UHGV virus genome: UHGV-1376660
Origin: a virus
DNA length: 64,000 bases
Strand: one strand, 5' to 3'
Numbering within the stretch: the first letter of the stretch is position 1; the number at the start of each line of letters is the position of its first letter. Under the pieces are notes generated by a model, which had not been told where the DNA came from, ran no database searches, and worked only from the letters and a program-made list of their open reading frames with translations. The translations under genes and the position numbers were made by a program. This document shows, in pieces, positions 15,262-64,000 of this stretch.

Positions 15262-15288
15262 AAAAGCGCCCACTATGGGCGCTTTTTT
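15262..15288 (+). terminator. Rho-independent terminator (AAAAGCGCCCACTATGGGCGCTTTTTT)
   Basis: Same hairpin as 15018 flanked by A-run and T6; bidirectional potential. Confidence 0.7.
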
Positions 15289-15310
15289 CGTTTCAAGATC
15301 CGCACACCAT

Positions 15311-15336
15311 AACGCGCCATTGTTGGCGCGTTTTTT
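15311..15336 (+). terminator. Rho-independent terminator (CGCGCCATTGTTGGCGCG + T6)
   Basis: GC stem and T-run. Confidence 0.55.
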
Positions 15337-15739
15337 ATTGTCTGAAGTCAGCCAAAACAGACCAAAAACAAGCGCCATAAACGCGCCAATTTAACGCGTT
15401 TTTATGTGTGGTGGTACATACCCATTACCCACAATAAAAACATGTTATAGCGCGTTTTACAGCGTTTTAGCGCGTGGCTTATTTTGTCGTGTCGTGGGCG
15501 TGATCGTCTGGCGATATCTGGCGACGTGATCCGCGCCATCCTTCGGGACGTGTCGGCAATATTGGAGCTATCCGTGGGCGCTCGCGTATCATTAGCACGT
15601 TGGCGCGACGTGTACGCGCTTCCTGTGGTTTACCCACGGATTCACATAATCACATAGCGAAAGCTATCTGGATTGCTCAGGGGCTGAAACCCCACCAGCG
15701 CTACCCCAGCGCCCCTGCGATATTTTCTGGCAGGATTCT

Positions 15740-15900
15740 GGGCTTCTCCCGCTCAGTTTTCTACATAAAGGCAAACCCAGCCGTTTCCCGAAAATTCCCT
15801 GGCCGTTTCCCTTCGGTTCCCCGGACAGCTCTCTGGCCGTTTCTGAAATTCCCTGCGGCAGCTGGTGGACGAAAAGAAAGGGGCGTTTCCAGCCCCTCTC
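15740..15900 (+). repeat. C-rich iteron-like repeats (GCCGTTTCCC / TTTCTGAAA / TTCCCTG units), cluster A
   Basis: At least 4 related units; related cluster at 19300-19460. Confidence 0.6.
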
Positions 15901-15903
15901 CTC

Positions 15904-16386
15904 TTACTTGCCAGCCAGAATGTGAATGCGGTTCTTTCCGTACACCTCTTTCACGTATTCACCGCACGAGACACTCCACGAGTCGATTCCTGCTTCGTAG
16001 GTGACGTTTTTGCACTTGATGGCATTGTTGGCGATACGCATCCCCTCCCCCACTGCTTCCTGTTCGCTGAAGTCGAGCCCGGATTCTTGTTTAACCCATA
16101 GCGCGATCTGCGTGGCGAACTCGATGAGTTTTGACTGGCAGAAGCGACCGCTGCGTACCGGGAAGATGAATACGCCAAATCCGGAGGTGGAGACATACGC
16201 TTTCTCAAATACGCGCTTATGGCGACGGTTGCAGATAATGTCATTGGTGATCTGCTGTTTCTCTTTCCCGGACAGCTCGATGGTTACATTGTCACGCCAG
16301 GCGCCCAGCACGCTTTTCTCGTTATCAGAGAACGTCACAGAAATATGGCCATGCGCAGGGGTGTTAACAGTAGCGATAAAGTTCAT
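15904..16386 (-). CDS. Hypothetical early protein
   Basis: 160-aa ORF preceded by the conserved promoter motif at 16401-16433. Confidence 0.45.
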   Translation of the reverse strand: MNFIATVNTPAHGHISVTFSDNEKSVLGAWRDNVTIELSGKEKQQITNDIICNRRHKRVFEKAYVSTSGFGVFIFPVRSGRFCQSKLIEFATQIALWVKQESGLDFSEQEAVGEGMRIANNAIKCKNVTYEAGIDSWSVSCGEYVKEVYGKNRIHILAGK

Positions 16387-16400
16387 GGTGATAATCCTTT

Positions 16401-16433
16401 AAACAACTTGTTTTCTTGTTGGTTTAATTATCG
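16401..16433 (-). promoter_or_regulatory. Conserved early promoter/operator motif (AAACAAnTTGTTTTCTTGTTGGTGTTATTATC family)
   Basis: Minus strand reads GATAAT(-10-like)-AACACCAACAAGAAAACAAnTTGTTTA-SD-ATG. Confidence 0.6.
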
Positions 16434-16591
16434 CTACGCGCATAAGGCGTCCAAGCGTTCTGTTCCGGTAGCTGGTGGCCGGCAGGGAGTCGGAGGGTTA
16501 TTAGGTAGCCTGGCGGTAAGAGGTGGGTGTTTTTAGCCTGCGGGAAACAGGATGGCCATTTAAGGCCACCAGCATGGGTGGCCTCGTTCTC

Positions 16592-16878
16592 TTAGTGGAG
16601 CAGACCGACGTCGATGGTATCACCTGAGCCATCCACGCGGATCATCAGCATGGCGAAGGCATTTAATGGGTAGCCTGCGTGCCAATCCGGGAAGCGGTCA
16701 TCGCGCATGAAGTCGGCAATGTCATAAACGCTGTCCTCAAAGCGGAAGAAGCGGGCATCACATTGTTCGTCCTGTTCAATGTGATCCATTTCCAGCTGCT
16801 CTTCCGGCGACAGGTCGAGCCAGGATTCCAGCCATACGTTTTCAGCTTTAGGGGAGATAGTGAAATCGGTCATGTGCA
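16592..16878 (-). CDS. Hypothetical acidic small protein
   Basis: Probable start MHMTDFT at 16878 with SD GGAGGA; about 25% D/E. Confidence 0.4.
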
Positions 16879-16881
16879 TAT

Positions 16882-16915
16882 CCTCCATGCGTAAACATCT
16901 TGTTTTCTTGTTGGT
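16882..16915 (-). promoter_or_regulatory. Conserved early promoter/operator motif copy
   Basis: TAAACATCTTGTTTTCTTGTTGGTGTAATTATCG. Confidence 0.6.
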
Positions 16916-16998
16916 GTAATTATCGCAAGCGGATAAGGCAAAAAACATTTTGTTATCGGGAATAAGAAAATGGCGCGGGATACGCGCCATTGCAGTGA

Positions 16999-17391
16999 TT
17001 AAGCGAATACGCTTTCCGGGATGTGGTTTTCCAGGGGAATGTTAGATGCGATACGCAGACCGTATTGCCCAAGCCAGGTAGAATTCATGTTGAGACCTGA
17101 GTCGAACACCTCCTCGGCCTGTACCATCATTTTTTCAAACATTTCTTTATTCCCTTCGCGGAAATAGGCAGCCAGTTTTAGCAAGACCGGATCTGACGCA
17201 TTACTGACGCTCTGGTAGCCTACCGAGTAAACTGCAGTGTCCCCTTCGCCGGTGCGAATTAAGGTGCTGGTGTGCACATCACCTCCGATAGTCTCGCGCA
17301 GAACGACGGTTAATTTCGCGACTTTCTCGCCGGAGGCTTTCTCGGAAGCATAATGCAAATCCATCACAAGACTCTCACGTGAAACTGTCAT
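16999..17391 (-). CDS. Hypothetical protein
   Basis: Probable start MTVSRESL at 17391 with SD GGGAGA. Confidence 0.4.
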   Translation of the reverse strand: MTVSRESLVMDLHYASEKASGEKVAKLTVVLRETIGGDVHTSTLIRTGEGDTAVYSVGYQSVSNASDPVLLKLAAYFREGNKEMFEKMMVQAEEVFDSGLNMNSTWLGQYGLRIASNIPLENHIPESVFA

Positions 17392-17518
17392 TTTTATCTC
17401 CCTATAGTTGGTGGTTTTTATATTATTAAAATAGGTAGGCACTTACAATCCAAGCAAGCAAAAAGCCCCGAAGGATGGACGGGGCTGTCGTAGGGACGAC
17501 TAATCGCTTTTGCACATG

Positions 17519-17830
17519 TCAGGCTGTCGCCAGGAAAGAGGCACGCTGGATTTCTTGCTGGGCGACTTTGTTCGCCTCCAGTAACGCCTGTTCCAGCTCT
17601 CCTTCCGGCCAGATAATCTGTTTTGCCATCCACCCTTTCCCACTCTGGCGACGCACACTCATCACGTAACGCGCGCGGGAGCCATTGTCGAACGAGGCAA
17701 TTGTCTCTTTAAACAGGCGAATGGCAGTACCGTTGGCGATGATATCGAGCAAAGTCAGTTGGCTCAGAACTGCTGGCTTCTCTTTACGTGGCTGTCCCGC
17801 GCTCAGTTTGGTAATCATCGCGTTTTTCAT
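17519..17830 (-). CDS. Hypothetical protein
   Basis: Probable start MKNAMITKL at 17830 directly downstream of promoter motif. Confidence 0.4.
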   Translation of the reverse strand: MKNAMITKLSAGQPRKEKPAVLSQLTLLDIIANGTAIRLFKETIASFDNGSRARYVMSVRRQSGKGWMAKQIIWPEGELEQALLEANKVAQQEIQRASFLATA

Positions 17831-17841
17831 AACTATCTCCG

Positions 17842-17875
17842 TAAACAACTTGTTTTCTTGTTGGTGTAAATAATA
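17842..17875 (-). promoter_or_regulatory. Conserved early promoter/operator motif copy
   Basis: GTAAACAACTTGTTTTCTTGTTGGTGTAAATAAT. Confidence 0.6.
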
Positions 17876-17906
17876 CAGAGCTGAAAACGGGATAGAACCA
17901 ATCTAT

Positions 17907-18221
17907 TCAGGGTGTACTCCATGAATAGGTGACTTCACTATCATTGGCGATACATGGAAATGGCACTTCAAAAACCCAGCCTTCTTCATCCAACTTTTTG
18001 TACATAAGGAGATCTTGCTTCATCAGGTATTCATTAAAGTGATAGTTGTCTCCGTCAGTCCCTTTCTTGTGCCAGACAATTTCGTCTCCCTTCAACTGAA
18101 CAAGCGCAACGATATCTTCCTCAACCTCCGGCGCTGGCTGGCGGTCTTCCATATCGCGAATGACGAAACAGATTAAGAAACAGTCCCCGGTGTCAGGGTT
18201 GCTGGTGGTGTAGTAGTGCAT
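17907..18221 (-). CDS. Hypothetical protein
   Basis: 104-aa ORF. Confidence 0.35.
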   Translation of the reverse strand: MHYYTTSNPDTGDCFLICFVIRDMEDRQPAPEVEEDIVALVQLKGDEIVWHKKGTDGDNYHFNEYLMKQDLLMYKKLDEEGWVFEVPFPCIANDSEVTYSWSTP

Positions 18222-18316
18222 TTGATTCTCCAGTTTTTAGTTTGGCCTCCAGTCTATTCGTCGTCGCATTTGGACAGGTCAAGTTTTTTTTGGCCACCGT
18301 GCTGGTGGCCCCACTC

Positions 18317-18538
18317 TTAATCTTCGTCGTCCGGGAACTCGATGTGTACCGCGTCCACCAGCTCCCGCTGTTCATCTTCACTGAGCAGATGCCAGATATC
18401 CTTCCCTTTGGGTGATTCCCCTTCAGCCGGGACGAAAGACCACAACTTGCGGTACAACTGCGGCCCCACAGCATCCAGACACTCAGCCAGGGAATCCACG
18501 CTCCACACCTCAACCATCACAGGCATCTTAATCATCTC
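18317..18538 (-). CDS. Hypothetical small acidic protein
   Basis: Probable start MIKMPVMVEV with SD GGGTGGAGAG. Confidence 0.35.
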   Translation of the reverse strand, partial: EMIKMPVMVEVWSVDSLAECLDAVGPQLYRKLWSFVPAEGESPKGKDIWHLLSEDEQRELVDAVHIEFPDDED

Positions 18539-18776: not shown

Positions 18777-18811
18777 CTAAACATGTTGTTTTCTTGTTGG
18801 TGTTATTATCG
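18777..18811 (-). promoter_or_regulatory. Conserved early promoter/operator motif copy (best -10, CGATAAT)
   Basis: CTAAACATGTTGTTTTCTTGTTGGTGTTATTATCG. Confidence 0.6.
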
Positions 18812-18903
18812 CAATAAGAAAACGGGGAAAAAGAATTCCTTAAAGGCTGATGTGCTTGTGCCGATTTATTGCTATGTATGTATCTGGCTAACTCAGAGGG
18901 AAT

Positions 18904-19149
18904 GTGATGAGCACTAAAGACTACACAGACGGGTACTTCAGCATCGACGCCGAGAGAGGCGAGTTGCTACATGGCGGCATCGCTGTCGGACGCGTCATTT
19001 TGGTTAACGGTCAGATTTACACAGAGCTGGACGATACCAGTTCAAACGCACCTGTCGTCTCCGGCCCCTTCGGGACAAGAGAAGAGGCGCTCGATGATTT
19101 GTGGGACAACAGGGACGATGCGAATCAGGGCAGTGAGATTTTCGAATAA
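18904..19149 (+). CDS. Hypothetical protein
   Basis: 81-aa plus-strand ORF with SD AGAGGGAA. Confidence 0.4.
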   Translation: MMSTKDYTDGYFSIDAERGELLHGGIAVGRVILVNGQIYTELDDTSSNAPVVSGPFGTREEALDDLWDNRDDANQGSEIFE

Positions 19150-19299
19150 ACGTCCTCGGCGATTTCACCACCAAAACCCGTAACCCTTTATACTAGATCT
19201 GGCTTCCCGATATGAGCGTGCGAAGCTGATCTGGTCTCAACGCTCAACTGCGGGATTCACCAATTCCCGCACTCTTAAGGTGAATGAGGAAAAGGCATA

Positions 19300-19460
19300 C
19301 TCCCGCAGCCGTCCCTCGCTCTGTACCGGGATGTACCCGTTTCCCGACCGGCAGCCAGCCTTTTCCCGGTTCGTATAGCGGGATTCCCACCATTTCCCTG
19401 AAAACCTCCAGCCTTTTCCCTGCGGCGACGCTCCCGTTTCTGAAAAGGGACATGGCCTTT
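19300..19460 (+). repeat. C-rich iteron-like repeats (CCGTTTCCC / CCTTTTCCC / TTTCTGAAAA units), cluster B
   Basis: At least 6 units; shares unit types with 15740-15900. Confidence 0.6.
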
Positions 19461-19679
19461 CCCCTGGATGGCCCGAAGGCTGACCGAAGGGGTGGATAGG
19501 GACGTTACGGGGGATGAAAACGATGGCTTGAATTTCTACGGAGAAAGTAGCGATACCCCTCTTCCCATTCCCACTTATACCTCCAGTTAAATCTCTACGT
19601 ATTTTCTCTCCTATGAACGTGCAAACCTTCCCCCTGATAACGCTCTATACGGCGAGTATTCCTTTGGGTGAAATGGGTG

Positions 19680-20190
19680 GTTTGTTCTCTCTACCGGCGT
19701 ATGTGGTTTCGTTGTTCTTGAGGCGGTTTTTCTCTGTGTTTTCGTCTGGGTTGTTCTCGTCGTTTTGGTGAGTGTTCTTCTCCGTGTATGGAGTAATGGC
19801 AGGTGCGCTTTTCTCTTCGTTTACGTGAAATGATGGAAGTGTGGGTAATGGCAGTAGGGCGCTTTAGTTGTTCTCCGCATATGAAGTAATGGCGTTCCCT
19901 GCTATTCAGGAATTTGCGCTCCCTTTCGGGGTAATGGTGGGTAAACGAGATTGCGACGGTTCCTGTTCTGGTCTGGGTTTGTCCGGGGTTTCGTTCTGGC
20001 TGTTCTTCTCCGTGTATTGGGTAATGGCGTGTAGGGGTTTGCGTGCGCGAGCTGCGTTCTCGGTTGCCTGGGGAGATTAGGTGGGTGGTCTGTAGCCTGG
20101 GGCAAAGAGGTGGGTCTTTTCGGTAGCCTGACAGGAAGAGGTGGGTGTTTCCGGGATTGTGGGTAATGGCGTCTCTGGTTTTCCTGTGGG
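19680..20190 (+). repeat. GT-rich noncoding repeat tract with 6x GTAATGGC, a duplicated 27-bp unit (TGTTCTTCTCCGTGTATGGAGTAATGGC) and GTAGCCTG-AGAGGTGGGT repeats
   Basis: Strong G+T strand bias; no credible ORF (the 186-aa frame is low-complexity). Confidence 0.65.
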
Positions 20191-20194
20191 TGTG

Positions 20195-20235
20195 GTTAAC
20201 TTGTTTTCTTGTGCCTGAAAACAACTTGTTTAGAT
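20195..20235 (-). promoter_or_regulatory. Tandem half-copies of the early promoter motif oriented to transcribe the GT-rich tract on the minus strand
   Basis: GGTTAACTTGTTTTCTTGTGCC...AAAACAACTTGTTTAGATG. Confidence 0.4.
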
Positions 20236-20581
20236 GTCCAATATAACGCAACGGGAGCGCTTCTGAGCGTGTCTGTTTTTGGGTGGTATCACGAGTCGTT
20301 TTTGACGTTTTGGTCGCAGGGAGATGGATTCTGGTGCGCAGGATTTTGGGTATAAGAGATGGCGTGCGAAAACATCAACTTTTAGACCAAATCAGGGGAA
20401 AGCGTTGACTTTACGTTGATGTGTTATTTATTTGTTTTCTTATGGGTGTAATTGGCTTAAATACCTTGTCACGCCTGGGCTGGAGTGGGCTGGAGTGGTG
20501 GGGGAAGTGGCGATCAACGGACTCTTATAGAAATCCTCAATTTGTGACCGCCAACGTCAACGGATTGCGCCTAATCCCTAT

Positions 20582-21784
20582 CTACTGGAAGTCGATGGAA
20601 TCGCTTTCTATCATGCGATTTATCTCGGCCATTCTTTTCTCACTTTCTAAGTGCTTTGTAACGTACAAATCAGGCTGTAGTGGGGGAAGAGGTACAGGTA
20701 ACACAAGGCTATGTTTCACATAAGTATCTCTCATAGACTGCTCTACCTGCCATCCGTCAATTTCTTGGTAGTTAATCGGCCAGTTGTCCTGAAGTGCTTT
20801 GGTTGTATTGGCAATTGAAAACTTGAAGTAAGGGTTCAAGCCCATGAAGTTGCCGGCAAGCATGTCATCTACCTGTCGCACATTGGCAATGGCCGCAAAC
20901 TTTGCAATGGCCAGATCAATATCCCAGCCTGAAACGAACAACAATAAGGCGGAAAATGCGAGTAGTTTTTCCTCACCATCAGCTCTGTCTTTTACCGATT
21001 TGTTTTGGAATTCAATGTAGTTATTGATAATAAATGCGTTCAACTGGAGGGTCTTTGCGTATTCTTCTCTCAATAACTCAGGATCTAACAGTGTGGGATT
21101 TTGCGTTTTATGGACAAAACTTCGCAGTTCTACGATGTTTTTGCGGTGGATATTTAGCCTATCCAAGCACTCCAAAGTAGGCTGATGTAGTCTAACGGTC
21201 TCTCTCAAAATCGCCTTTGCCCAATCGAAGCCAGGCACGATAGCCTGCATAGGATGGAACGGCAAAATGGTATCTCTGTGCCACGCATATGGGTAAGCAG
21301 GCAACTCAATAATATAGGCCAACCAATCGATCTGCTCATGGCTCAATGTGATTTCGAATGTCGATTCGCGACGTTTGGCAAAAAACCACTGCCGCATATT
21401 TCGCATAGCTTCTTGTGTGAAGACATTTTCCTGAATGCCCGCACATACCATTTTTCTGATCACATGCGTAATTCTCGTGCGATCAGTGGTGAATCGCACT
21501 AGGTGCTGCCTGACCTCGTTCGAAAGTCGATCATCATAAAAATCGCAGGATGGATGGTGTGCGCTAACACCACTTCCCCCAATAAACCGGAAATGAGCTT
21601 TTTTGCGATAGTTGCCGACTCCTGAAGCTCGTACATAGGAACCGCCACCAGCCTCGCAAATAGGACAAACGACGTCTTCACGCGCAAAAGCATGTACGGT
21701 GTTATTATCCAACCCCAACAGGGCCATGTATTGCTCTGGGTCGACTTCTTTTTGTAAGGCTTTTGAGTATGCTGTATCAGTCAC
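20582..21784 (-). CDS. Hypothetical 400-aa protein with N-terminal Cys/His cluster (CPICE...HHPSC), in an AT-rich segment
   Basis: Long ORF with lower GC than neighbours. Confidence 0.55.
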   Translation of the reverse strand: MTDTAYSKALQKEVDPEQYMALLGLDNNTVHAFAREDVVCPICEAGGGSYVRASGVGNYRKKAHFRFIGGSGVSAHHPSCDFYDDRLSNEVRQHLVRFTTDRTRITHVIRKMVCAGIQENVFTQEAMRNMRQWFFAKRRESTFEITLSHEQIDWLAYIIELPAYPYAWHRDTILPFHPMQAIVPGFDWAKAILRETVRLHQPTLECLDRLNIHRKNIVELRSFVHKTQNPTLLDPELLREEYAKTLQLNAFIINNYIEFQNKSVKDRADGEEKLLAFSALLLFVSGWDIDLAIAKFAAIANVRQVDDMLAGNFMGLNPYFKFSIANTTKALQDNWPINYQEIDGWQVEQSMRDTYVKHSLVLPVPLPPLQPDLYVTKHLESEKRMAEINRMIESDSIDFQ

Positions 21785-22018: not shown

Positions 22019-22339
22019 TTACCAGTCCCAGGCTGGCAGGCCTTCCACCAGCTCGGCGTCGCAATCGAATTGCACCGCGTCAAAGCCAGCATCCAGTACC
22101 TTTTGAATGTTCTCGATGGTTTGCCATGTGACACCGTAATCACGCAGCTCTTCTTTCCAGTCGTTACCCCGCATACCTGCGCGGACAATCCATCCGTACT
22201 TCGTGCCGTGTACCCAATTCAGGCCGCGATCGGTTAGCGGGTCGAAACAGATATTAGGCAGACAGTCAGAGTCATGCTGTGTAATGTGGGCAGTGCTGAT
22301 CACCGCTGTCTTATACGATTCGGTTAGTTTCAGCATCAT
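22019..22339 (-). CDS. Hypothetical protein
   Basis: 106-aa ORF. Confidence 0.4.
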   Translation of the reverse strand: MMLKLTESYKTAVISTAHITQHDSDCLPNICFDPLTDRGLNWVHGTKYGWIVRAGMRGNDWKEELRDYGVTWQTIENIQKVLDAGFDAVQFDCDAELVEGLPAWDW

Positions 22340-22572
22340 GCCTTCTCCTTCGGAAACAGAGTGTCGGCCGTGTCAGAGATGACGTCCCAATTCACGCCGA
22401 CGTTGGCGTCATGGCACTCTTTGATTTTTCGCATAACCTGAACGCACTGTTCGTCAGTCAGGTCTGGTCGCACTTCACCTACATCTTCCTTGTGCCACAT
22501 CACCATCAGCAGCGGCTCGTCTTCTGGGTAGTTCTCCAGCTTTTCGATGATGTCTTTTGCGGTTCCGAGCAT
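22336..22572 (-). CDS. Hypothetical protein
   Basis: Probable start MLGTAKD after SD GGGG; behind promoter motif 22584-22619. Confidence 0.4.
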   Translation of the reverse strand: MLGTAKDIIEKLENYPEDEPLLMVMWHKEDVGEVRPDLTDEQCVQVMRKIKECHDANVGVNWDVISDTADTLFPKEKA

Positions 22573-22583
22573 GATTAACCCCT

Positions 22584-22619
22584 TAAACAATTTGTTTTCT
22601 TGTTGGTGTTATTATCTCA
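22584..22619 (-). promoter_or_regulatory. Conserved early promoter/operator motif copy
   Basis: TTAAACAATTTGTTTTCTTGTTGGTGTTATTATCTC. Confidence 0.6.
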
Positions 22620-30901: not shown

Positions 30902-30933
30902 AAAATGATAGGTAAATACTTACCTATCATTTT
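30902..30933. promoter_or_regulatory. 22-bp palindrome element AAAATGATAGGTAAATACTTACCTATCATTTT (family consensus ATAGGTAAGTACTTACCTAT)
   Basis: One of at least 16 copies in the window, always intergenic. Confidence 0.6.
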
Positions 30934-31528
30934 GTGACAAAAATCCAATGTCACGCTTGTGAGGCATATCAGCTGCGGAGTAGGCGGCGATCTTCGCCAG
31001 GCGGTCACACATTTCGTTCTCGCGATGACCGGCATGACCTTTAACCCACTTCCAGCGGACATTGTGACGGCTGGCGGCCGCATCGAGACGTTTCCAGAGA
31101 TCGACGTTTTTGACTGGCTTCTTCTCAGACGTGATCCATCCGTTACGCTTCCAGCCTTTCATCCAGAGCGTCATGCCGTTTTTAAGATACTGGCTGTCGG
31201 AATGCAGGATCACATTGCAGGGGTACTTCAGACGCTCCAGCGCAATCAGGGCGCCCATCATCTCCATCCGATTGTTGGTCGTGCTGTGGAAACCCTCAGA
31301 AAGCTCGCGCTCTTCACCTCGATACTGGAGAACGATGCCGTAACCGCCAGGCCCGCCCGGATTTTTGAGGCAAGAGCCATCACTGAATACTTTTACGGTT
31401 TTGAGCTGGGGATTGAACTCGACTACGGGGGTTTTGAAGTTGGTACGGGATTGCTGGTGGGTTTGGTATCTGGCTTTGGACTTCGTGCGGCAGCCAGTAT
31501 GTTGCCGGGCTGGGGTCTTGGTCGTCAT
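30920..31528 (-). CDS. rnhA: Ribonuclease HI
   Basis: [20 protein letters not shown]...[16 protein letters not shown]...HSDSQYL...[11 protein letters not shown]...[16 protein letters not shown] aligns closely with E. coli RNase HI; about 45-aa N-terminal extension. Confidence 0.9.
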
Positions 31529-31569
31529 TTTGGCTCCAGAATCGCGCGCCGCGACGATTTTTTTTCCCT

Positions 31570-48872: not shown

Positions 48873-48899
48873 GTCTCAAGCCGTTGCGGTTACTGGCCT

Positions 48900-49440
48900 G
48901 AGAGGGGGTTACTATCCACTATGGGGAGGAAAGTAACCTCTGTAGAGAGCATAATAACCGCTATGAAGAGCAAAACAACCTCTCTGGAGAGTGGTCGGTA
49001 TCCACTGTAGTGAGTAGGAGACATTGTCTTAACTGGATAACTCAGTGCCTGTATTTCTACGTCAGGTGGCTGATATTCATAGAGATGTTGGAAGGTTTGC
49101 GTTCAGGCGTGTTTGTTTCGACCACACATTATCCCCAGAAGGGGAGTAATGGCTGGTTTTGCAATTACCTGATTTTTATACACAGGCCCGATCCAGTAAT
49201 TCAGATCCCAAAGAGAACCAAAGAGACCCACAAAGACCCAAAAAGATCCCCGCACCCCGCAAACCGTTGTGCCACATGGCTTTAGAGGTGATCACTATCC
49301 ACTATAGAGAGAAGATCAGCCACTATGAAGAGCAAACCAACCACTGTAGAGAGTAGAAAAACCACTATAGGCGGTAGGATAACCGCTGTGATGAGTGCTA
49401 CTATCCACTGTAATCAGTAAAGGCCACCAAAGCCGTCGAA
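48900..49440 (+). repeat. Upstream iteron arrays (two sub-clusters, at least 10 copies of CCACTrTrGAGAGTAG-type 16-19-bp repeats; several resemble DnaA boxes, e.g. CTATCCACT)
   Basis: Direct repeats read from the sequence. Confidence 0.75.
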
Positions 49441-49458
49441 TAAAAAGAGACATTTGGA

Positions 49459-50514
49459 ATGAGCGAAAACGGCAATAAAAACATAGCGATCGTTGAAGCA
49501 TTCTCAGAAACAGACAAAAAGTCCGGCGAAGTTGTTACGTTGGTTCCTAACACCAACAACACAGTTCAGCCCGTTGCTCTGATGCGTCTTGGTCTCTTCG
49601 TTCCGACGCTGAAATCGACCTCCAGGGGCAGAAAGGGGCAAATGGTCTCTATGGACGCCTCTGCTGAACTCAAACAGCTGTCTCTGGCAAAAGCCGAAGG
49701 GTATGAGGACATAAGGATCTCTGGCGTTCGTCTGGATATGGATAACGACTTCAAAACGTGGGTAGGCATCATCCACGCGTTCGCCAAGCACAAGGTTGTT
49801 GGCGACACTGTCACGTTACCGTTTGTCGAGTTCGTCAGGCTTTGTGGCATACCAACGGCCAGATCATCCGCGAAGTTACGTAAGCGCCTGGACAGTTCTC
49901 TAACCCGTATCGCCACAAACACTATCTCATTCCGCACTAAAGGCTCTGAAGAGTATTACGTGACGCACCTTGTGCAGACAGCAAAGTACAGCACCAAGAA
50001 TGACACGGTCTCGCTGCAGGCTGATCCTAAGATTTTCGAACTCTACCAGTTCGACAAAAAGGTTCTTCTGCAACTCCGGGCAATCAACGAACTCTCCAGA
50101 AAAGAATCCGCGCAGGCGCTCTACACCTTCATCGAAAGTTTGCCACCTGACCCGGCACCAATCTCGTTGGCTCGCTTACGCGCCAGACTTAACTTAACCA
50201 GCCGCACCATTACCCAGAACGCGACAGTCAGGAAGGCGATGGAACAGCTGCGGGAGATCGGCTATCTCGATTACACCGAAGTGAAGCGCGGCAGCTCGGT
50301 CTACTTCATCATCCACTATAGGCGGCCGAAGTTACGCCCGGCATTGCCACCAGTTAAAGCTGCGTCGGAAGAACCAGAAGACATCTTGCCTGGTGATGAT
50401 CAGGAGGACATTATCGATGTTGTTCCTGAAGAAAAAGACGGTGAGATGGTCATGCTGAGCAAGGAAGAACTGGCGATTCTCGAAGAGCTGCGCAAGGCAA
50501 AGGCTCGCAAATAG
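49459..50514 (+). CDS. repA: Plasmid-type replication initiator (RepA/RepE-like, iteron-binding)
   Basis: 351-aa plus-strand ORF flanked on both sides by iteron arrays, the same architecture as P1/F-type replicons; not confirmed by search. Confidence 0.65.
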
Positions 50515-50519
50515 CCCAA

Positions 50520-51120
50520 CCACTGTAGAGAGTAGAAAGGCTCACTATCCGCTGTAGTGGGCCTTTTGTTTATCTGAAATCAGCTATCCACTGTAGTGAG
50601 TAACAACAACCGAAGAGTAACCACTGTAGGCAGTAGTGCTCAAATAACGAAATAAATGTTAGTGGTTACAAACATAGATGAAACAAGGGCTGCGAGGTTA
50701 GTGGTCACTGGGTGACTTGTTAAATCCACTCTCTATAGTGGTTATCGTTGCTCCCTTCGCTATTGGCTATCCACTGTGGAGAGCAGAACCGGTTGGCTGG
50801 ATATACTATCCACTGTGGAGAGTAGATATCCGCTGAAAACAGTGAAGGTTTACTCTCCATAGTGGATACCCGCTGGAGGGCGCATTCCATCACTCTCTAT
50901 AGTGGTTGTTTGCTGCGAATAAACGCCTGTTTACTCTCTACAGTGGATAGCGACGCCGATAAACGCCACTTTACTCACTACAGTGGATACAGGATGTCAC
51001 GACAGGAGTTTACTCACTACAGTGGTTGGGTTGCATACCTGAATGGCGCTCTACTCACTACAGTGGTTATGAGCCGGATACGCACGCGGTGAGCTGGCTA
51101 CTCACCGCAGTGGTTAGTGT
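50520..51120 (+). repeat. Downstream iteron array (about 12 copies, both orientations: CCACTGTAGAGAGTAG / CTACTCACTACAGTGG)
   Basis: Direct and inverted repeats read from the sequence. Confidence 0.75.
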
Positions 51121-51122
51121 TA

Positions 51123-51338
51123 TCAGTGGATTTTCTTCAGCAAACCCCAGAGTGTCCCGGCCTTTGTCGTGAGCTTACCTGTTTCCGGATCGTACATGCG
51201 CCATTCGCGACGCTGGTGGACAATAACACCGTCCTCACGTTCCAGACGCTCTAGCACGCCGGGTTGCTTAAACCCTTTGGCACGCCAGTAGCCGCTTGTT
51301 TTTTCGATTTCCAGACCTGCCAGTGTAACCGCCATCAA
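51123..51338 (-). CDS. Hypothetical small protein
   Basis: 71-aa ORF. Confidence 0.35.
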   Translation of the reverse strand: MMAVTLAGLEIEKTSGYWRAKGFKQPGVLERLEREDGVIVHQRREWRMYDPETGKLTTKAGTLWGLLKKIH

Positions 51339-59364: not shown

Positions 59365-59808
59365 TTATGCGACTTTCTTACCAAAAATGTTGGATAGCGT
59401 GACTCTGGTCTGGCGTTTCAGCCTGTACTGCCTCACATCGCCAATCTTGTTCACTTCCATAAACTCTTTGGCCACCTTCAGCACCAGCCGATTGCGGAAC
59501 ACTTTGAACGCCTCCAGCTGTTCCTCTGGGTTATCCGATTCGTAGATCTCCAGCAGATACTGGCACGCCTTCGGATCTTGCGTTTTAAGCGCCAGCGCTC
59601 TGGCACATTTACGCAAACGACTGACTTTGTCGGCACCATCCAGCCCGGCGAACGCCAGCGCCAGATCTAACGTGACCGGACAGTCGATGATTTCCCAGAA
59701 CTGCGACCGCATGGTGGCCGCAACTGCTTTATCCTGAAAATCCGCTGGGATAGCCGCCAGCGCTTGTGCAATCTTCTGTGCCTCGTTCATGGTGTTCTCT
59801 TTATTCAT
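59365..59808 (-). CDS. Hypothetical protein
   Basis: 147-aa ORF, 4-nt overlap with the DnaE C-terminal segment. Confidence 0.4.
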   Translation of the reverse strand: MNKENTMNEAQKIAQALAAIPADFQDKAVAATMRSQFWEIIDCPVTLDLALAFAGLDGADKVSRLRKCARALALKTQDPKACQYLLEIYESDNPEEQLEAFKVFRNRLVLKVAKEFMEVNKIGDVRQYRLKRQTRVTLSNIFGKKVA

Positions 59809-60974
59809 TTGCTAATAGTCTCCGCTACCTCTGCCAGAATTGCTTCCAGCTTTTCGCCTTCTTCTGGGCGAAAGTACAAAATGTTTGGGTTAAATCCGTA
59901 GAAAACGGTCACATCCAGCTCCGGCAGATACTCTTTGCGTCCAACCAGGTCGGATGGTTTGTTCTTGTTGTTGAAGAGTGACGTCGCCCGGCTGCCACAC
60001 GTCAGCACATAGGTCGGACGCACCAGATTGACCTCTTCACGCATAAAGTCGGTGAACTGGCCGATCTCGTCTTTGGTGTAGTCCTTCTCTTTGTCCTTCA
60101 CCTTTTTGCACACGCCGGTGACGTAGAGATCGCCCATGCGCAGATCGCCTGCAGTAAGCAACTTCGCTTTAAAGTCGTCGTAGCCGTTCTCCATGAAGTA
60201 ACCGGTACGCCCATCATTGCCGTTCGCGTTGTCCAGAATGACCATGATTTTCGGCTTAATGCCAATGCTTGGGCGAATCAGGTCGTCTCCCAGACCCATT
60301 TCGGCCGCCATGCGAGTCATCAGTACATTCACCTCGGCAGAGCGCTTAGGGTTCATCTCGAACGGTCGAGAGGCTTTTACAGCGTCGATCACCAGATTGC
60401 CCATCAGCTCTGCCTGGTCGCGCAGACGTTCCGGGTCTGTCGCTGGCAGACTGCCAGGCTCAATCGATGCGAACGCACCTACTTTTTGCAGTGACTCGCG
60501 TACCCGGCTGTTACATGCACGCTTCTCGACCGATTCCTCGAATTGCGCCAGCGATTCGAATTTTCCGCCAACTTTCTCACGTGCTCTCATGATGGCCTGG
60601 CATCCGTTCTCAGAGCAGCCTTTCACAGCAGAGAATGGCGCATACAGAACCTGGCTGCCGTCTTCTAGCGTGCGGATCTCAATTCGGTTAGATGACACGT
60701 TAACGTCTGGTGGCAATATGCGAATACCATAGGTCAGCGCATCCTTAACCAGCCCTTGGTGCTTATCCTCGCCCAGAATGGTGAGAGCTGCAGCGAAGAA
60801 TTCAGCAGGGTAGTGCGTCTTTAGCCACATAGACTGATAGCTGATCAGCGAGTAGGCAACGGAGTGTGATTTGTTGAAGGCATACGCGCCGGATTTCTCA
60901 AACATATTCCAGATTTCTTCGGCTCGTTCGTGCGTCAGGCCATTACTCTCTTCAACAACACCGGTAATTTTCAT
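59805..60974 (-). CDS. dnaE: DNA polymerase III alpha (DnaE-type), C-terminal segment (exon 2 or a separately translated fragment)
   Basis: ERAEEIWNMFEKSGAYAFNKSHSVAYSLISYQSMWLKTHYPAEF aligns with E. coli DnaE [45 protein letters not shown]. Confidence 0.85.
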   Translation of the reverse strand: MKITGVVEESNGLTHERAEEIWNMFEKSGAYAFNKSHSVAYSLISYQSMWLKTHYPAEFFAAALTILGEDKHQGLVKDALTYGIRILPPDVNVSSNRIEIRTLEDGSQVLYAPFSAVKGCSENGCQAIMRAREKVGGKFESLAQFEESVEKRACNSRVRESLQKVGAFASIEPGSLPATDPERLRDQAELMGNLVIDAVKASRPFEMNPKRSAEVNVLMTRMAAEMGLGDDLIRPSIGIKPKIMVILDNANGNDGRTGYFMENGYDDFKAKLLTAGDLRMGDLYVTGVCKKVKDKEKDYTKDEIGQFTDFMREEVNLVRPTYVLTCGSRATSLFNNKNKPSDLVGRKEYLPELDVTVFYGFNPNILYFRPEEGEKLEAILAEVAETISK

Positions 60975-61705
60975 GCAGTCACCTCATCAATCTTCATGAA
61001 CTCATACCCATTGGACACCAGCCAGTCCCGCTGGCGCTCCCAGCTCCATACCTCTTCACGCATTTCGCTATGCAGACGAATGTGAGCGTCTTCTGGAAGT
61101 GCTACCAGATTCCCAGGGGCGTTATCTACCGTGTCGCGGTTAAGGTGGTGGACATGTTCATCGTCACGTAGCTCCCGACCGAGATGTTCTTTCGCTATCA
61201 ACCGATGAACGTATTCGTATTGCGAAACGCCATTGTTACCAACCAGCTGCATCATGTAGCCGTTGGTTTTTATGATGACGCCACCTTTGTAGTTGTTCGC
61301 TTCTTCTCCGGTCTTTCCGCGTTTGGCAGCCGCCAGCTTTTCCTTCGTCTCTAGGCGGATTGTTCTGCCGGTCAGCTTTTTCGAAACGGTGGCCACTCGC
61401 TCATCGGTATCAGCACGCAGCCCTGCATTCCACGAGGTTTTCCCATACATAGGGTTGCCAGCGCCAGCCCGGGCTTCGGAGAGTCGCTTTATGCGTTCGT
61501 CATTATTTTTGTTTTTGCCACGATTCCAGGCTGGGGTAGCGGAGATCCGCGCGTTTCCGCGCCTGATCCCCCATTTGGCTAATAAGCGATCGATATTTGC
61601 CTTGCTGCAACCAGCTTCGGCGGCAATGTCTTCTTTTCTCATCAGGTCAACCATGTAACGCTGGCGTAACCATTCTTCTGTGATTTTGTACTTCGTACCC
61701 GGCAT
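60971..61705 (-). CDS. HNH homing endonuclease inserted within dnaE
   Basis: HNH motif HVHHLNRDTVDNAPGNLVALPEDAHIRLH; own copy of the early promoter motif at 61719-61750; stop overlaps the ATG of the downstream dnaE segment. Confidence 0.85.
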   Translation of the reverse strand: MPGTKYKITEEWLRQRYMVDLMRKEDIAAEAGCSKANIDRLLAKWGIRRGNARISATPAWNRGKNKNNDERIKRLSEARAGAGNPMYGKTSWNAGLRADTDERVATVSKKLTGRTIRLETKEKLAAAKRGKTGEEANNYKGGVIIKTNGYMMQLVGNNGVSQYEYVHRLIAKEHLGRELRDDEHVHHLNRDTVDNAPGNLVALPEDAHIRLHSEMREEVWSWERQRDWLVSNGYEFMKIDEVTA

Positions 61706-61718
61706 TTCAAAAACTCAC

Positions 61719-61750
61719 TAAACAAATTGTTTTCTTATCTTATAAATTAA
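61719..61750 (-). promoter_or_regulatory. Early promoter/operator motif copy (degenerate) driving the HNH gene, located inside the dnaE intervening sequence
   Basis: CTAAACAAATTGTTTTCTTATCTTATAAATTAAC. Confidence 0.5.
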
Positions 61751-61753
61751 CTC

Positions 61754-64000
61754 TCAAATATCGAAGCTCGTTATGTCGGCATTTATAGCCATTGCTTCGG
61801 CATAAGTGCGACGCTCACCATCAGCGCAAAGTAGGCGTGCTGCTTTATGAATTTTCCTCGTAGAACCGTCATCCAGTGACACTGTCACCCAGCCTTCCTC
61901 CGCTCGCTTAATGAAGTTGCCGCCAATGGATTTCATTTTCTCCATATCTTTTTTCCCGATCGCTTTCCTGACCGAGTCTGCTTCCGCCATAGAGAACCCC
62001 GCCAAGATTCGCGTAGCAGCCATGATCTGTTCCTGATAAATCAGAACGCCGTTTGTGTCGCGAGAGATGTCGTCCAGCATTGGGTGTAAGGAATGTGGAG
62101 CCATGAAGCCTTTGGCCACGGAGACATAGTCGTCCAACATGCCGGATTGAATCGGGCCTGGTCGGAAGAGTGCGGTCGTGGCGACAACGGTTTTGAAGCT
62201 CATTGGCTCAATACCACCGCCAATATCTTTAAGCAGCTTGCGCATAGGGCCGGACTCCAGCTGGAATACGCCCTGCGTGTACCCTGCAGCGAACCCATCC
62301 AGAACCTTGCGATCGTCCAGTGGGATAGCATCGAGATTGATGTCTTCCTCGGTACTCTCTTTGATGTAGCGTTTCGCGCTATCCAGCAGATCGAGCGTTG
62401 CCAGACCGAGAACGTCCAGCTTAATCAGCCCCATCGCCTCGCAGTAACGTTTATCGAACGCAATACAGCGAGCGTTGCCACGCAGCTCGACGGGAGTGCG
62501 CTCTACCAGTGGAACGCCAGCGACGATCATCCCCGCTGCGTGACGGCCAAAACCACGCATCAGGCTTTGCAGCTTACATGCCGCTTTGAACGCTTCCGGG
62601 TTTTTCGTGGCGTATTTGTCTAGGCTGGCCAGTTGTTCGCGCAGCTCTTCCAGCGGCAGGCTATCGTCCTCCAGATTCTTGAACTCTTTGGATACCGCCA
62701 TATCCGCAGCGTCTACACCGTAAATACGCGCAGTGTCACGCAGCGCAGAAGCCGCGCCCAGATAGGTGAAGTTCGGAATACCGGCAACGTAATCTTCTCC
62801 ATAACGTTCATTCAGATACTCGATCACCTCATGACGACGTGCCTGGCTGAAGTCCAGATCCGCATCCGGCAAGTCGAGACGTTCAGGGTTAATGAAACGC
62901 TCAAACAGAAGACCGTGACGGATAGGATCGACGTTGGTTATGCCGATGCACCACGCCACCAGAGAACCGGCAGAGGAACCACGACCTGGCCCGACAGGAA
63001 TGCCAGTTTCACGGCTGTGATTCATCAGGTCGCGCACCATCAGGAAGTAACCGCAGAAGCCCAGGCGGGTCAGCGTGTCCATTTCGTACTTCAGACGATC
63101 AACATACACGCGGTGCTCAGAAGCCGGTGGTGTGTAACCAAACTCTTTGGTAGTAAGACGCTTGCGCAGCCCCGCGACAGCCAGCTTCATCAGCGTTGCA
63201 GGCTCGTCGTCTGCCATCTTGGGCAGTGCTGGTGGCAATTCATGCCAGCGCCATGTGCAGGCTTCAATAATGGTGTCCTGCGTTGTTGAGGCCATTGCAG
63301 CTGTTACAGGTACATCCATGCGAACGGAGAAGGCTTTCAGCGCTTCAAGGAGATGGCGGCGACCATTAACGGCGTTATCTCGCTGGTGGGGAATACGCAG
63401 ACGATGCGGCTGGTCGATTTTGATGTTGTTCGTAACCATGTGCGCAATGTCTTTAATGTCAGCGTCGTCGACCGCTTCGTAATAAGCGGGATAGAACGCC
63501 ACTGGCTCTATTTTCAGTGCGCTCGCCACTTTCATCGCCCGGACGTTAATCTGGTCGTAGAATGGGGTAGGGTGCGGATAAACCACGCTGTAGAAGTTAT
63601 CGCGTCCTCCAACTGTCACCAGCGTCCCGATAATCTTTGCGAAGTCCCGGCGCTGGAATACACTGCCAATGTCGGACGTCAGCAGGATGATGTTGCCTTT
63701 GGCATATGCGGCCGCCAGCTGGTCAAGTGCCAGACGCGGGACAAAGTAGAATTGCTCGCGCTTGTTGGCTAAGGTCATCAGTTCGCACACGTCGCGATAA
63801 CCTTGCTCATTCTTTATCAGTGCCGTGAAGCAGTAGCTGCGATCACGCACCAATGATTCCATACATCCTCCTGACTCTTTCGCCAGGCGGGCGCGGTGCT
63901 CGTATGTCGGATCGTCGACCACATTCAGCTTAACACCACAAATAACCGCCATGTCGTCGCCAGCGGCACGCTGCAGGGGGATCACACTGGCAATGTTCAT
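61754..64000 (-). CDS. dnaE: DNA polymerase III alpha (DnaE-type), N-terminal segment; continues beyond the window
   Basis: PHP and palm-domain motifs GIPVGPGRGSSAGSLVAWCIGITNVDPIRHGLLFERFINPERLDLPDADLDF; LIYQEQIM...; homology to DnaE ends at ...FIKRAEEG (about nt 61892), followed by 45 unrelated codons before the stop. Confidence 0.9.
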   Translation of the reverse strand: MNIASVIPLQRAAGDDMAVICGVKLNVVDDPTYEHRARLAKESGGCMESLVRDRSYCFTALIKNEQGYRDVCELMTLANKREQFYFVPRLALDQLAAAYAKGNIILLTSDIGSVFQRRDFAKIIGTLVTVGGRDNFYSVVYPHPTPFYDQINVRAMKVASALKIEPVAFYPAYYEAVDDADIKDIAHMVTNNIKIDQPHRLRIPHQRDNAVNGRRHLLEALKAFSVRMDVPVTAAMASTTQDTIIEACTWRWHELPPALPKMADDEPATLMKLAVAGLRKRLTTKEFGYTPPASEHRVYVDRLKYEMDTLTRLGFCGYFLMVRDLMNHSRETGIPVGPGRGSSAGSLVAWCIGITNVDPIRHGLLFERFINPERLDLPDADLDFSQARRHEVIEYLNERYGEDYVAGIPNFTYLGAASALRDTARIYGVDAADMAVSKEFKNLEDDSLPLEELREQLASLDKYATKNPEAFKAACKLQSLMRGFGRHAAGMIVAGVPLVERTPVELRGNARCIAFDKRYCEAMGLIKLDVLGLATLDLLDSAKRYIKESTEEDINLDAIPLDDRKVLDGFAAGYTQGVFQLESGPMRKLLKDIGGGIEPMSFKTVVATTALFRPGPIQSGMLDDYVSVAKGFMAPHSLHPMLDDISRDTNGVLIYQEQIMAATRILAGFSMAEADSVRKAIGKKDMEKMKSIGGNFIKRAEEGWVTVSLDDGSTRKIHKAARLLCADGERRTYAEAMAINADITSFDI

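Follow-up and report, generated by a model that had tools for sequence, protein, structure and literature searches.

A strand-asymmetric noncoding element conserved between early operons of SSU5/pHCM2-type phage-plasmids

Introduction

Termination by Rho requires RNA that is untranslated, C-rich, G-poor and unstructured, and replication origins of the T4 type require only a promoter and an unwinding or hybrid-forming region. RNA-based prophage origins, which we compare below among the transcription-activated origins, are known in mycobacteriophages (PMC7157519). In the ops element, the bases C3 to G8, T11 and G12 are essential for RfaH recruitment and pausing, with G2 being dispensable (PMC5995543). 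Here we describe a conserved noncoding element of ~1.3 kb in the virus genome UHGV-1376660, analyzed over a stretch of 64,000 nt (the window), and compare it with these systems. Our reading, which is tentative and may well be wrong, is that the element is a Rho-dependent transcription barrier or insulator between tandem leftward early operons, carrying repressor operators.

The window is, judged by its matches to Salmonella phage SSU5 and to plasmids, a phage-plasmid of the SSU5/pHCM2 type. Phage-plasmids of this type are frequent in clinical Klebsiella, E. coli, Enterobacter, Salmonella Typhi and Citrobacter, and they move resistance genes. Next to nothing has been mapped of their lysis-lysogeny circuitry, their lytic origin or their transcription programme, and the searchable literature contained nothing relevant on transcripts or a lytic origin of pHCM2 or SSU5. 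As far as this literature shows, the element has not been described previously; in the database records examined it is unannotated save for occasional hypothetical-protein calls over its central tract.

Results

A strand-asymmetric tract is the middle of a 1.3-kb conserved noncoding element

The gene map, taken from a near-identical RefSeq plasmid, runs from head and terminase genes at the left end through a plus-strand block (DEAD-box helicase, regulators) into a long minus-strand run of early and DNA-metabolism genes. The element has at its centre the following feature.

19680-20240, minus strand: noncoding tract, G+T-rich on the plus and C+A-rich on the minus strand, central part of the element, delimited by composition and having no conserved open reading frame (ORF) and no conserved structure

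Between 19600 and 20300 the GC skew is +0.27 to +0.45 and the AT skew -0.37 to -0.53. The 500-nt maximum of G+T content in the 64 kb lies at 19701 and reaches 0.71, against a mean of 0.508 and a standard deviation of 0.031 (~6.5 standard deviations), so that the extreme asymmetry asserted in an earlier note on this DNA is fully borne out. RNA read leftward, in the minus sense, would contain 36.5% A, 33.5% C, 17% G and 13% U. The skews are kept or even stronger in lineages at 67% identity, and in the segment 20470-20505 the sequence differs in every lineage and the minus sense is always C-rich and G-poor. No genome-scale switch of GC skew was found at the element.

The same note had described a noncoding tract of ~550 bp. 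Its noncoding nature stands, but its extent does not: by alignment, the tract is the middle of a conserved noncoding element of ~1.3 kb (~19290-20580) that is 67-99% identical across plasmids. To the right, conservation runs to the stop codon of the next gene at ~20580 (alignment with SSU5, Klebsiella and Cronobacter relatives), and to the left it reaches ~19290 in seven lineages, among them pCP102, a distant Enterobacter plasmid (dedicated left-flank alignment). The overall length is kept despite compensating indels, and the layout, read from right to left as the local direction of transcription, is the same in the seven lineages compared. The genes on both flanks vary between lineages, and the element is therefore regarded as an autonomous noncoding module of ~1.3 kb.

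Directly upstream of it, the 400-aa ORF 20582-21784 (minus strand) has no Pfam domain and matches only phrog_12525 (function unknown). Its position is occupied in other lineages by a GIY-YIG nuclease, an Ivy lysozyme inhibitor or a coiled-coil protein; as unrelated genes are swapped at the same position, cargo seems to be inserted at the right edge of the element.

The element is a core feature of the enterobacterial phage-plasmids

The region of the window is 94% identical to Salmonella phage SSU5, with weaker matches to Klebsiella phage ST13-OXA48phi12.3 and Escherichia phage Cyrano. A 700-bp core of the tract matched 367 plasmids by megablast, and a wider query of 981 bp matched 841 plasmids in PLSDB by sensitive blastn: Klebsiella 431, Escherichia 224, Enterobacter 91, Salmonella 49, Citrobacter 25, Cronobacter 10 and Shigella 7. 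Nearly all plasmids with the element are non-mobilizable and ~105-115 kb in size. The SSU5-type capsid gene was found in 953 plasmids, and its count equals that of the element exactly in Enterobacter (91/91), Salmonella (49/49) and Citrobacter (25/25). The capsid gene occurs without the element in Yersinia pMT1-type and Acinetobacter relatives. The Acinetobacter SSU5-like plasmid, the most distant syntenic relative compared, has an A-rich gap without a C/A-rich tract, and the feature therefore belongs to the enterobacterial clade. Judged by these counts, the element is a core feature of enterobacterial SSU5/pHCM2-type phage-plasmids, kept in essentially all of them.

About 90 further large Klebsiella plasmids without the phage capsid gene carry only a 750-bp fossil of the element, corresponding to 19808-20562 of the window, and are uninformative as to its function. 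Two such copies, from Klebsiella IncFIB/IncHI1B plasmids, are given as examples.

Plasmid locus L214, 1960-2713, and plasmid locus L215, 9001-9741: 750-bp fossil copies between copies of IS903B, IS66 and IS3

The minus-sense RNA is noncoding, C-rich and nearly free of structure

The only long minus-strand frame in the tract, a 186-aa ORF at 19691-20251 with a TTG start, shrinks to 49-129 aa in close relatives, being interrupted even where identity is still 94-96%, and has no Pfam or PHROG match. Across 23 representative sequences there was no conserved frame on either strand, which agrees with the earlier view of the ORF as an artefact and the tract as noncoding.

Folding of the single sequence was no better than that of shuffles on either strand (z = +0.41 and -1.0, the latter for the minus strand), and sliding-window alifold on 20 representatives gave ~0 kcal/mol for the minus strand and mostly shuffle-like values for the plus strand within the tract. 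Rfam searches of the whole window at the gathering threshold and of the region at E up to 5 returned only a chance CRISPR-DR match (E = 4.9), and no tRNA or tmRNA was found. A structured noncoding RNA is thus not supported, there being no Rfam family, no conserved fold and no structure in the repeats. The mean unpaired probability of the minus-sense RNA is 0.62, compared with 0.40±0.03 (maximum 0.47) in random segments. Along nearly all of 19641-20460 (~800 nt), its excess of C over G ranks in the 94th-99.9th percentile for stretches of 100 nt, whose C/G ratio is 1.4-2.7, and the element contains the three longest runs of C>G that the minus sense has anywhere in the window. Of all minus-sense RNA in the window, that from this region would have the strongest C>G skew and the least structure.

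Early-promoter relics with an operator palindrome point into the tract

The canonical early unit of this genome, aligned in the sense direction, is GCCTTTTC-N8-GATAAT-N4-CCAACAAGAAAACAAnTTGTTTA, followed by the ribosome-binding site and ATG of a minus-strand gene. The palindrome AAACAAnTTGTTT, present about 17-20 times in the window against ~2 expected, sits in a ~45-nt conserved promoter/leader unit ahead of most minus-strand early operons; its sites probably form a network of operators of the phage repressor.

6540, 16401, 16893, 17843, 18779, 22585, 22636, 28351, 29074, 40308, 53080, 61720: examples of AAACAAnTTGTTT sites
20195-20233, minus strand: rearranged early-promoter/leader copy CACAAGAAAACAAGTT with a perfect operator palindrome AAACAACTTGTTT (20219-20231) and no -10 box

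The alignment of these units upholds the earlier claim that half-copies of the early promoter at ~20195-20235 point leftward into the tract in the minus sense. The palindrome at 20219-20231 is kept at the same relative position in seven lineages. Two leader-like copies in the element, at 20212 and 20443, retain the CAAGAAAACAA part, have GTTTTC and GCCAAT in place of GATAAT and have no gene behind them; they lie ~+550 and ~+780 from a fixed anchor in all seven lineages. A simple sigma-70 scan of 18800-21000 found no promoter, and scans of four lineages found none in the element except, in Cyrano, a single site right at its right-hand border. In the window, the upstream operon is itself under repressor control. 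The operon downstream is preceded by a canonical promoter that lies 200-500 bp past the element (seven lineages). Four lineages were scanned for an intrinsic terminator from the stop codon of the upstream gene to the tract, and none was found.

The only transcriptome found was that of E. coli LF82 carrying the relative Cyrano (GSE154648), used here as gene-level counts. In this lysogen, the upstream gene CYRAN_102 reaches a log2 value of ~9.2, and CYRAN_103, a mis-annotated ORF inside the element 111 nt downstream on the same strand, stays at 2.3-4.3. The RNA signal therefore falls ~30- to 80-fold at the right edge, and there is no abundant RNA from the element in lysogeny. The earlier statement that the tract is apparently transcribed from an early-promoter copy is not sustained, because both copies lack GATAAT and no sigma-70 site is present, and the region is silent in the lysogen.

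Repeats of the tract lie on one strand and are conserved

The motif GTAATGGC occurs in five exact copies in the tract (19793, 19845, 19886, 20021 and 20163) and once as the variant GTAATGGT (19931), whereas six copies had been reported in the earlier note. The whole window contains 8 copies against 1.5 expected, a number reached by 0/100 shuffles; from the base composition of the tract itself, ~0.008 copies would be expected per 560 nt. The repeat units are listed here.

19773-19800, 19866-19893 and 20001-20028, plus strand: unit A, TTCTCCGYRTATKRRGTAATGGC, 28 nt, three copies with 82-100% identity
19845, 19931 and 20163, plus strand: shorter copies of unit A, (T)GGGTAATGGC
20060-20150, plus strand: unit B, (C/T)(G/T)GTAGCCTG-N7-GAGGTGGGT-(C/G)TTT, 31 nt, three tandem copies at 20060, 20089 and 20120
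16503-16535, plus strand: isolated extra unit B, AGGTAGCCTG-N7-GAGGTGGGT-GTTTTT, in another inter-operon spacer

The duplicated 27-bp unit noticed earlier is thus real, but measures 28 nt and occurs three times (19773, 19866 and 20001), and the GTAGCCTG...GAGGTGGGT repeats proved to be the tandem 31-nt unit. Among lineages, the unit A copy at 19886 is universal and the copy number ranges from 2 to 6, the distant pCP102 having four; unit B has two universal copies and a range of 2-4, with gain or loss of whole tandem units. Unit B contains at 20121-20130 the sequence CGGTAGCCTG, which resembles the core of ops. The repeats are conserved across the family. Their spacing is irregular (41-142 bp), differs by lineage and is not helically phased. 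Every one of them is on the same strand, which fits a polar process. The isolated unit B lies in a shorter C>G spacer (16401-16620) between two other operons. Given this conservation, something reads the repeat sequences, and composition is not the whole story.

Three further ideas about the repeats were tried. Neither unit B nor the other repeat units form a hairpin or terminator fold, which rules out unit B as a set of intrinsic terminators. Inverted GGTATAAG flanking the tract is weakly enriched (4 in the window, reached by 2/100 shuffles). A suspected likeness of GGTAATGGC and GGTGGGT to a segment of 16S rRNA was not borne out by Rfam.

The arms of the element carry inverted repeats, boxes and a terminator-like hairpin

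On either side of the tract the element has distinct parts, given here from right to left.

20470-20581, minus strand: outer right arm, beginning at the stop codon of the upstream gene, with an 8-bp inverted repeat GGCGRTCA...TGACCGCC and TCAACG boxes (consensus folding z = -4.6)
20360-20460, minus strand: inner right arm, with the inverted repeat AAAAC(A/G)TCAAC / GTTGAC(T/G)TTT and the leader-like copy CCCATAAGAAAACAAATAAATAAC
19520-19680, minus strand: junction, with the highly conserved block ACGCTCTATACGGCGAG...GGTGAAATGGGTGG (19640-19700), then an imperfect hairpin and the tail CGUAUUUAUUC (minus sense)
19290-19520, plus strand: left arm, with ~6 boxes (G/C)CC(G/T)TTT(T)CCC, purine-rich in the minus sense
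15421-15860, plus strand: second noncoding region with the same box families, having GCCGTTTCCC three times (15780, 15802 and 15836) and inverted CCCATTACCCACA at 15421 (GTAATGG motif)

The outer right arm consists of a conserved block followed by the variable segment that is always C-rich and G-poor in the minus sense. In the inner right arm, CCCATAAGAAAACAAATAAATAAC at 20443 sits within a T-rich block that is 96% conserved and melts easily. The 40 bp of the element that melt most readily are at 20424 (99.4th percentile), and the inverted repeat AAAACGTCAAC/GTTGACGTTTT flanks the T-rich block, with a compensating base change in the Cyrano lineage. The junction hairpin is purine-rich on one side and pyrimidine-rich on the other, with G.U pairs possible in the minus sense only. 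It is terminator-like in the Cyrano (E. coli) and Klebsiella lineages and weak in the lineage of the window, and its consensus is weak (-2.9 kcal/mol, one compensatory pair). The second noncoding region (15340-15900 in its wider extent) falls in a convergent gap and also has two Chi sites and a terminator hairpin of the minus-strand gene (~15870-15900); two plus-strand terminators lie at 15262-15336.

A Rho-dependent barrier between early operons is the favoured reading

The asymmetry outlasts sequence divergence and the repeats lie on one strand, so the element most likely acts at the level of a single strand, as RNA polymerase enters from the right. In the barrier that we tentatively propose, transcription of the upstream operon, which ends at 20582 without an intrinsic terminator, would run on into the element. 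The untranslated RNA that follows, C-rich, G-poor and nearly structure-free for ~800 nt, would let host Rho load and transcription would stop, so that the next operons, each on its own repressor-controlled promoter, would be insulated. In the lysogen, the operator palindrome and half-sites would add repressor roadblocks, and the hairpin at 19520-19585 would be a back-up stop. With respect to rut sites, the minus sense is C-rich and G-poor over at least 80 nt, largely unstructured and untranslated. The C>G unstructured RNA, the lack of an intrinsic terminator and the drop in signal between CYRAN_102 and CYRAN_103 together place a putative Rho-loading zone at the right edge. We infer Rho as the agent, the operators as roadblocks and the barrier as the selected function.

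Several observations weigh against this proposal. A Rho terminator needs ~100 nt and no specific sequence, and the element is 1.3 kb long with blocks conserved at 90-96%. Such a terminator accounts neither for the variation in copy number of the tandem units, nor for what the right arm contains, inverted repeats and an AT-rich block, nor for the same-strand motifs GTAATGGC, TAGCCTG-N-GAGGTGGGT and CCGTTTCCC, which are conserved up to 96%. An extra unit B stands in another spacer, and boxes of the left-arm kind are found again at 15780-15860, accompanied by GTAATGG in inverted orientation. The drop in RNA-seq, known from gene-level counts in one relative, may reflect RNA instability. The syntenic Acinetobacter relative has no comparable tract, so the feature is dispensable for this phage type as a whole. 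Finally, as the upstream operon is itself repressor-controlled, the need for a fail-safe insulator is not obvious.

A lytic origin is a possible alternative

An unlikely alternative is a lytic origin of the T4 or P1-oriL kind, in which a repressor-gated leftward transcript through the C/A-rich tract would form an RNA:DNA hybrid in the left arm and prime DNA synthesis, with the repeats and the AT-rich block with its flanking inverted repeats serving as loading or unwinding sites. The left arm is indeed the most hybrid-favourable 200 nt of the window for a minus-sense RNA (ddG -37.8, z ~-3.5), and this property is conserved (ddG -21 to -34 in seven lineages). An origin would also suit an element that is core, single-copy and autonomous in variable surroundings, with exact matches to the capsid count in three genera, and that combines several repeat families, inverted repeats and a 96%-conserved block at the 99.4th percentile of melting with an operator palindrome. 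Silence in lysogeny is as expected of such an origin, no dedicated lytic initiator was seen in the window, and the genome encodes a T4-like toolkit: a gp32-like single-strand-binding protein, a UvsX/RecA-like recombinase, FEN, SbcCD, RNase HI and a DnaE split by an HNH endonuclease.

Against an origin, the tract itself is not hybrid-prone (|z| up to ~2.4, of either sign), and R-loop propensity of the tract was set aside as not extreme. No TTWTNCACA DnaA box was found in the tract, where three one-mismatch sites belong to the GTAATGG motif, and there was no IHF consensus. The promoter copies lack a -10 box, the repeats are irregular and unphased, the skew does not switch on the genome scale, and the nearest DNA-metabolism gene is ~11 kb from the element. 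The origin of RepA at 49-51 kb could also serve lytic growth; its parts are as follows.

49459-50514, plus strand: Rep_3-family RepA gene, with two flanking iteron arrays in opposite orientations
48895-51130: RepA iterons ATCCACTGTAGAGAG, phased at 21 or ~40 bp, upstream and downstream of repA
48801 and 49176: DnaA-box-like TTATTCACA and TTATACACA

The tract repeats had been called iterons in the earlier note, a term that does not fit, as they are irregularly spaced and unrelated to the RepA iterons at 48.9-51.1 kb. The difference in sequence and location also rules out titration of the RepA initiator through its iterons or in the manner of incA. Pairing of the element, as origin, with the adjacent 400-aa ORF, as initiator, was rejected since the ORF lacks any Pfam domain and each lineage has a different gene at this place.

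Possible protein-binding arrays and a possible origin of a new kind

We regard as doubtful, after the lytic origin, an array of double-stranded binding sites acting as a regulatory hub, a centromere-like or packaging-related site, or a titration site. It is favoured by at least three box families whose copy number varies by gain and loss of tandem units, by the recurrence of boxes in the intergenic regions 15421-15860 and 16503-16535, by the presence of the CCTTTTC box in every canonical early promoter, and by the constant length of the element in the face of indels. However, duplex binding leaves unexplained an asymmetry that extends over 550-800 bp and is kept where the sequence diverges. 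Nor is the spacing constant or helically phased, no cognate protein was identified, and no par or terminase gene is adjacent, the neighbours being variable.

A further reading that we consider distinctly unlikely takes the 1.3-kb element to be the lytic origin of the family, or another essential cis-acting site, working by a new mechanism. The A+C-only composition would then keep the repressor-gated transcript and the displaced A/C-rich DNA single-stranded, and GCCATTAC and ACCCACCTCTT...CAGGCTAC would be read on the single strand by, for example, a gp32-like or UvsX-like protein.

Improbable readings: trans-acting RNA, decayed gene and ops

It is improbable that the element makes a long C/A-rich trans-acting RNA, confined to early lytic growth, that would serve as an unstructured platform showing GCCAUUAC and ACCCACCUCUU to an RNA-binding protein, to Rho or, as a sponge, to a G/U-rich small RNA (sRNA). 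The leftward promoter relics with their operator, the extreme lack of structure, the repeated same-strand motifs and the distal terminator-like hairpin of the E. coli and Klebsiella lineages, with G.U pairs in the minus sense only, are compatible with such an RNA. Opposed to it are the lack of a recognisable promoter and of an Rfam family, silence in lysogens and the weakness of the consensus distal hairpin. We compared pairing of the tract with the GcvB seed in the tract and in dinucleotide shuffles: the best duplex was -28.0 compared with -28.9±2.4, and the mean -17.3 compared with -18.5±0.5. Pairing is thus no better than in shuffles, and a GcvB sponge is ruled out.

Because the G+T-rich sense resembles a gene for a Val/Phe/Leu/Gly-rich membrane protein and a few lineages have ORFs of >100 codons, the plus-strand frame was examined explicitly. 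We regard as very improbable both a plus-strand gene, decayed or evolving fast, for a hydrophobic protein rich in Val/Phe/Leu/Gly/Trp and a functionless relic of duplicated promoter regions. In three Cronobacter-type sequences the frame through the universal motif stays open for 155-175 codons, in several Klebsiella sequences for ~107-118, and several database records annotate a hypothetical protein here. Its pN/pS is 0.56-0.84 compared with 0.61-1.45 in other frames, with 0.56-0.60 in the deepest comparisons. But the closer comparisons give 0.83-0.84, the codon-phase entropy is atypical and barely significant (97/2000 permutations reach the observed value), the frame is broken in close relatives of the open sequences, and only 20 codons are open in the whole E. 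coli (Cyrano-type) lineage. Two of the in-frame stops, at 19769-19771 and 19827-19829, are TGA in the lineage of the window and CGA in the Cronobacter lineage (locus L003; C-to-T), and this is why the frame of 155-175 codons is open in the Cronobacter lineage alone. No Shine-Dalgarno sequence precedes the plus-strand starts. With frames broken and none conserved, coding on the plus strand and on the minus strand was ruled out. A relic, for its part, would not have remained a single-copy core feature of six genera with 90-96% conservation in blocks.

Least probable of all is rightward transcription in which CGGTAGCCTG would serve as ops site and bring host RfaH to the non-template strand. Positions 20121-20130 match ops positions 3-9, 11 and 12, including all the essential bases, CGGTAGCCTG is nearly invariant in enterobacterial lineages, most of which have two intact cores, and the host range is that of RfaH-containing Enterobacteriaceae. 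However, the match specifies only 8-9 bases, and CGGTAGNNTG occurs four times in the window against 1.1 expected, a number that 3/100 shuffles reach. There is no plus-strand promoter upstream and no plus-strand gene downstream in any lineage, all right-hand neighbours lying on the opposite strand, and the core is part of a longer 31-nt tandem unit, unlike natural ops sites. In pCP102 the core is TGATAGCCTG, with G5 changed to A, which abolishes recruitment (PMC5995543). We treat the match as a coincidence or at most a curiosity, and gene orientation comes close to refuting the ops reading.

Other features of the window

The Chi sequence GCTGGTGG occurs 25 times in the 64 kb, about equally on both strands, against ~1.9 expected (0/100 shuffles reach 25), which points to selection, either for protection from host RecBCD or for making use of it. 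Chi is dense in the small-gene early region beside the element (seven copies in 15692-18362, and also at 21645 and 22045), and none lies inside the element; neither GATC nor Chi gave anything meaningful in the tract. The operon upstream of the element includes a DUF5983 gene (22019-22590, minus strand), accompanied in SSU5 by a DUF1380 protein. DUF5983 and DUF1380 families are typical of plasmid leading regions.

The plus-strand ORF 13515-14039 matches Pfam Flag1_repress (FljA family, phase-1 flagellin repressor; E = 1.7e-68) and is a homologue of the post-transcriptional flagellin repressor; the SSU5 annotation reads only "transcriptional repressor". The DnaE-type polymerase (59805-64000, minus strand) appears to be split, in that an ORF for an HNH/NUMOD3 homing endonuclease (60971-61705) lies between its N-terminal part (61754-64000) and its C-terminal HHH_6 part (59805-60974). 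In the Acinetobacter relative, a NUMOD4 ORF lies beside dnaE. The RNase HI homologue (30920-31528, minus strand) has a low-complexity, basic, T/Q/K-rich N-terminal extension of ~45 aa, which accounts for the only other G+T-rich patch of the window (31381-31540).

Discussion

The element is the largest conserved noncoding block of the early region and a compact target for testing. If it is an insulator, it would explain how variable cargo genes can sit beside early lytic operons without triggering them. If it is instead a lytic origin or a hub for protein or RNA, it would give a handle on induction and copy number, with relevance to heteroresistance and engineering. The dispersed operator palindrome, together with the grammar of boxes, provides a first map of the early regulon of the family.

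Among described systems, iteron titration arrays such as P1 incA share with the element same-strand direct repeats in the noncoding DNA of a plasmid prophage, but the element differs in its irregular spacing, its three or more motif families, its strong strand asymmetry and a sequence unlike that of the RepA iterons. Phage anti-sRNAs that mimic the C/A-rich targets of GcvB, such as AgvB, resemble its C/A-rich minus-sense RNA; the element, in contrast, is 10 times longer, has no promoter and terminator bounding an sRNA, and shows complementarity that is only compositional. The nearby duplication of CGGTAGCCTG is much like that of GGTAGC in JUMPStart. The sequence also fits the functional core and pause positions of the ops/JUMPStart element of RfaH (PMC5995543), although it is in the wrong orientation for any gene, loses its core in a distant lineage and is embedded in a 31-nt tandem repeat.

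The comparison with transcription-activated origins goes further. Like P1 oriL (with its C1-controlled P53), the R-loop origins T4 oriF and oriG, ColE1 RNA II and the RNA-based prophage origins of mycobacteriophages, the element comprises ~1 kb of noncoding DNA with an operator and an AT-rich melting block, a hybrid-favourable stretch lies past the putative start of the transcript, and the genome encodes a T4-like replisome. Unlike them, it has no recognisable functional promoter and no adjacent initiator gene (P1 oriL lies inside repL), and the asymmetry of the tract is of the keto/amino kind (G+T versus A+C), with no purine-rich RNA within the tract. Rho terminators and their rut regions, as in lambda tR1, trp t' and the rho leader, span ~100 nt, and the element differs from them by its ~800 nt, its conserved repeat motifs, its repressor operators and its inverted repeats; yet it shares with them an untranslated, C-rich, G-poor, unstructured RNA that follows an operon without an intrinsic terminator, and in parts of the element it is likewise composition, rather than sequence, that is kept.

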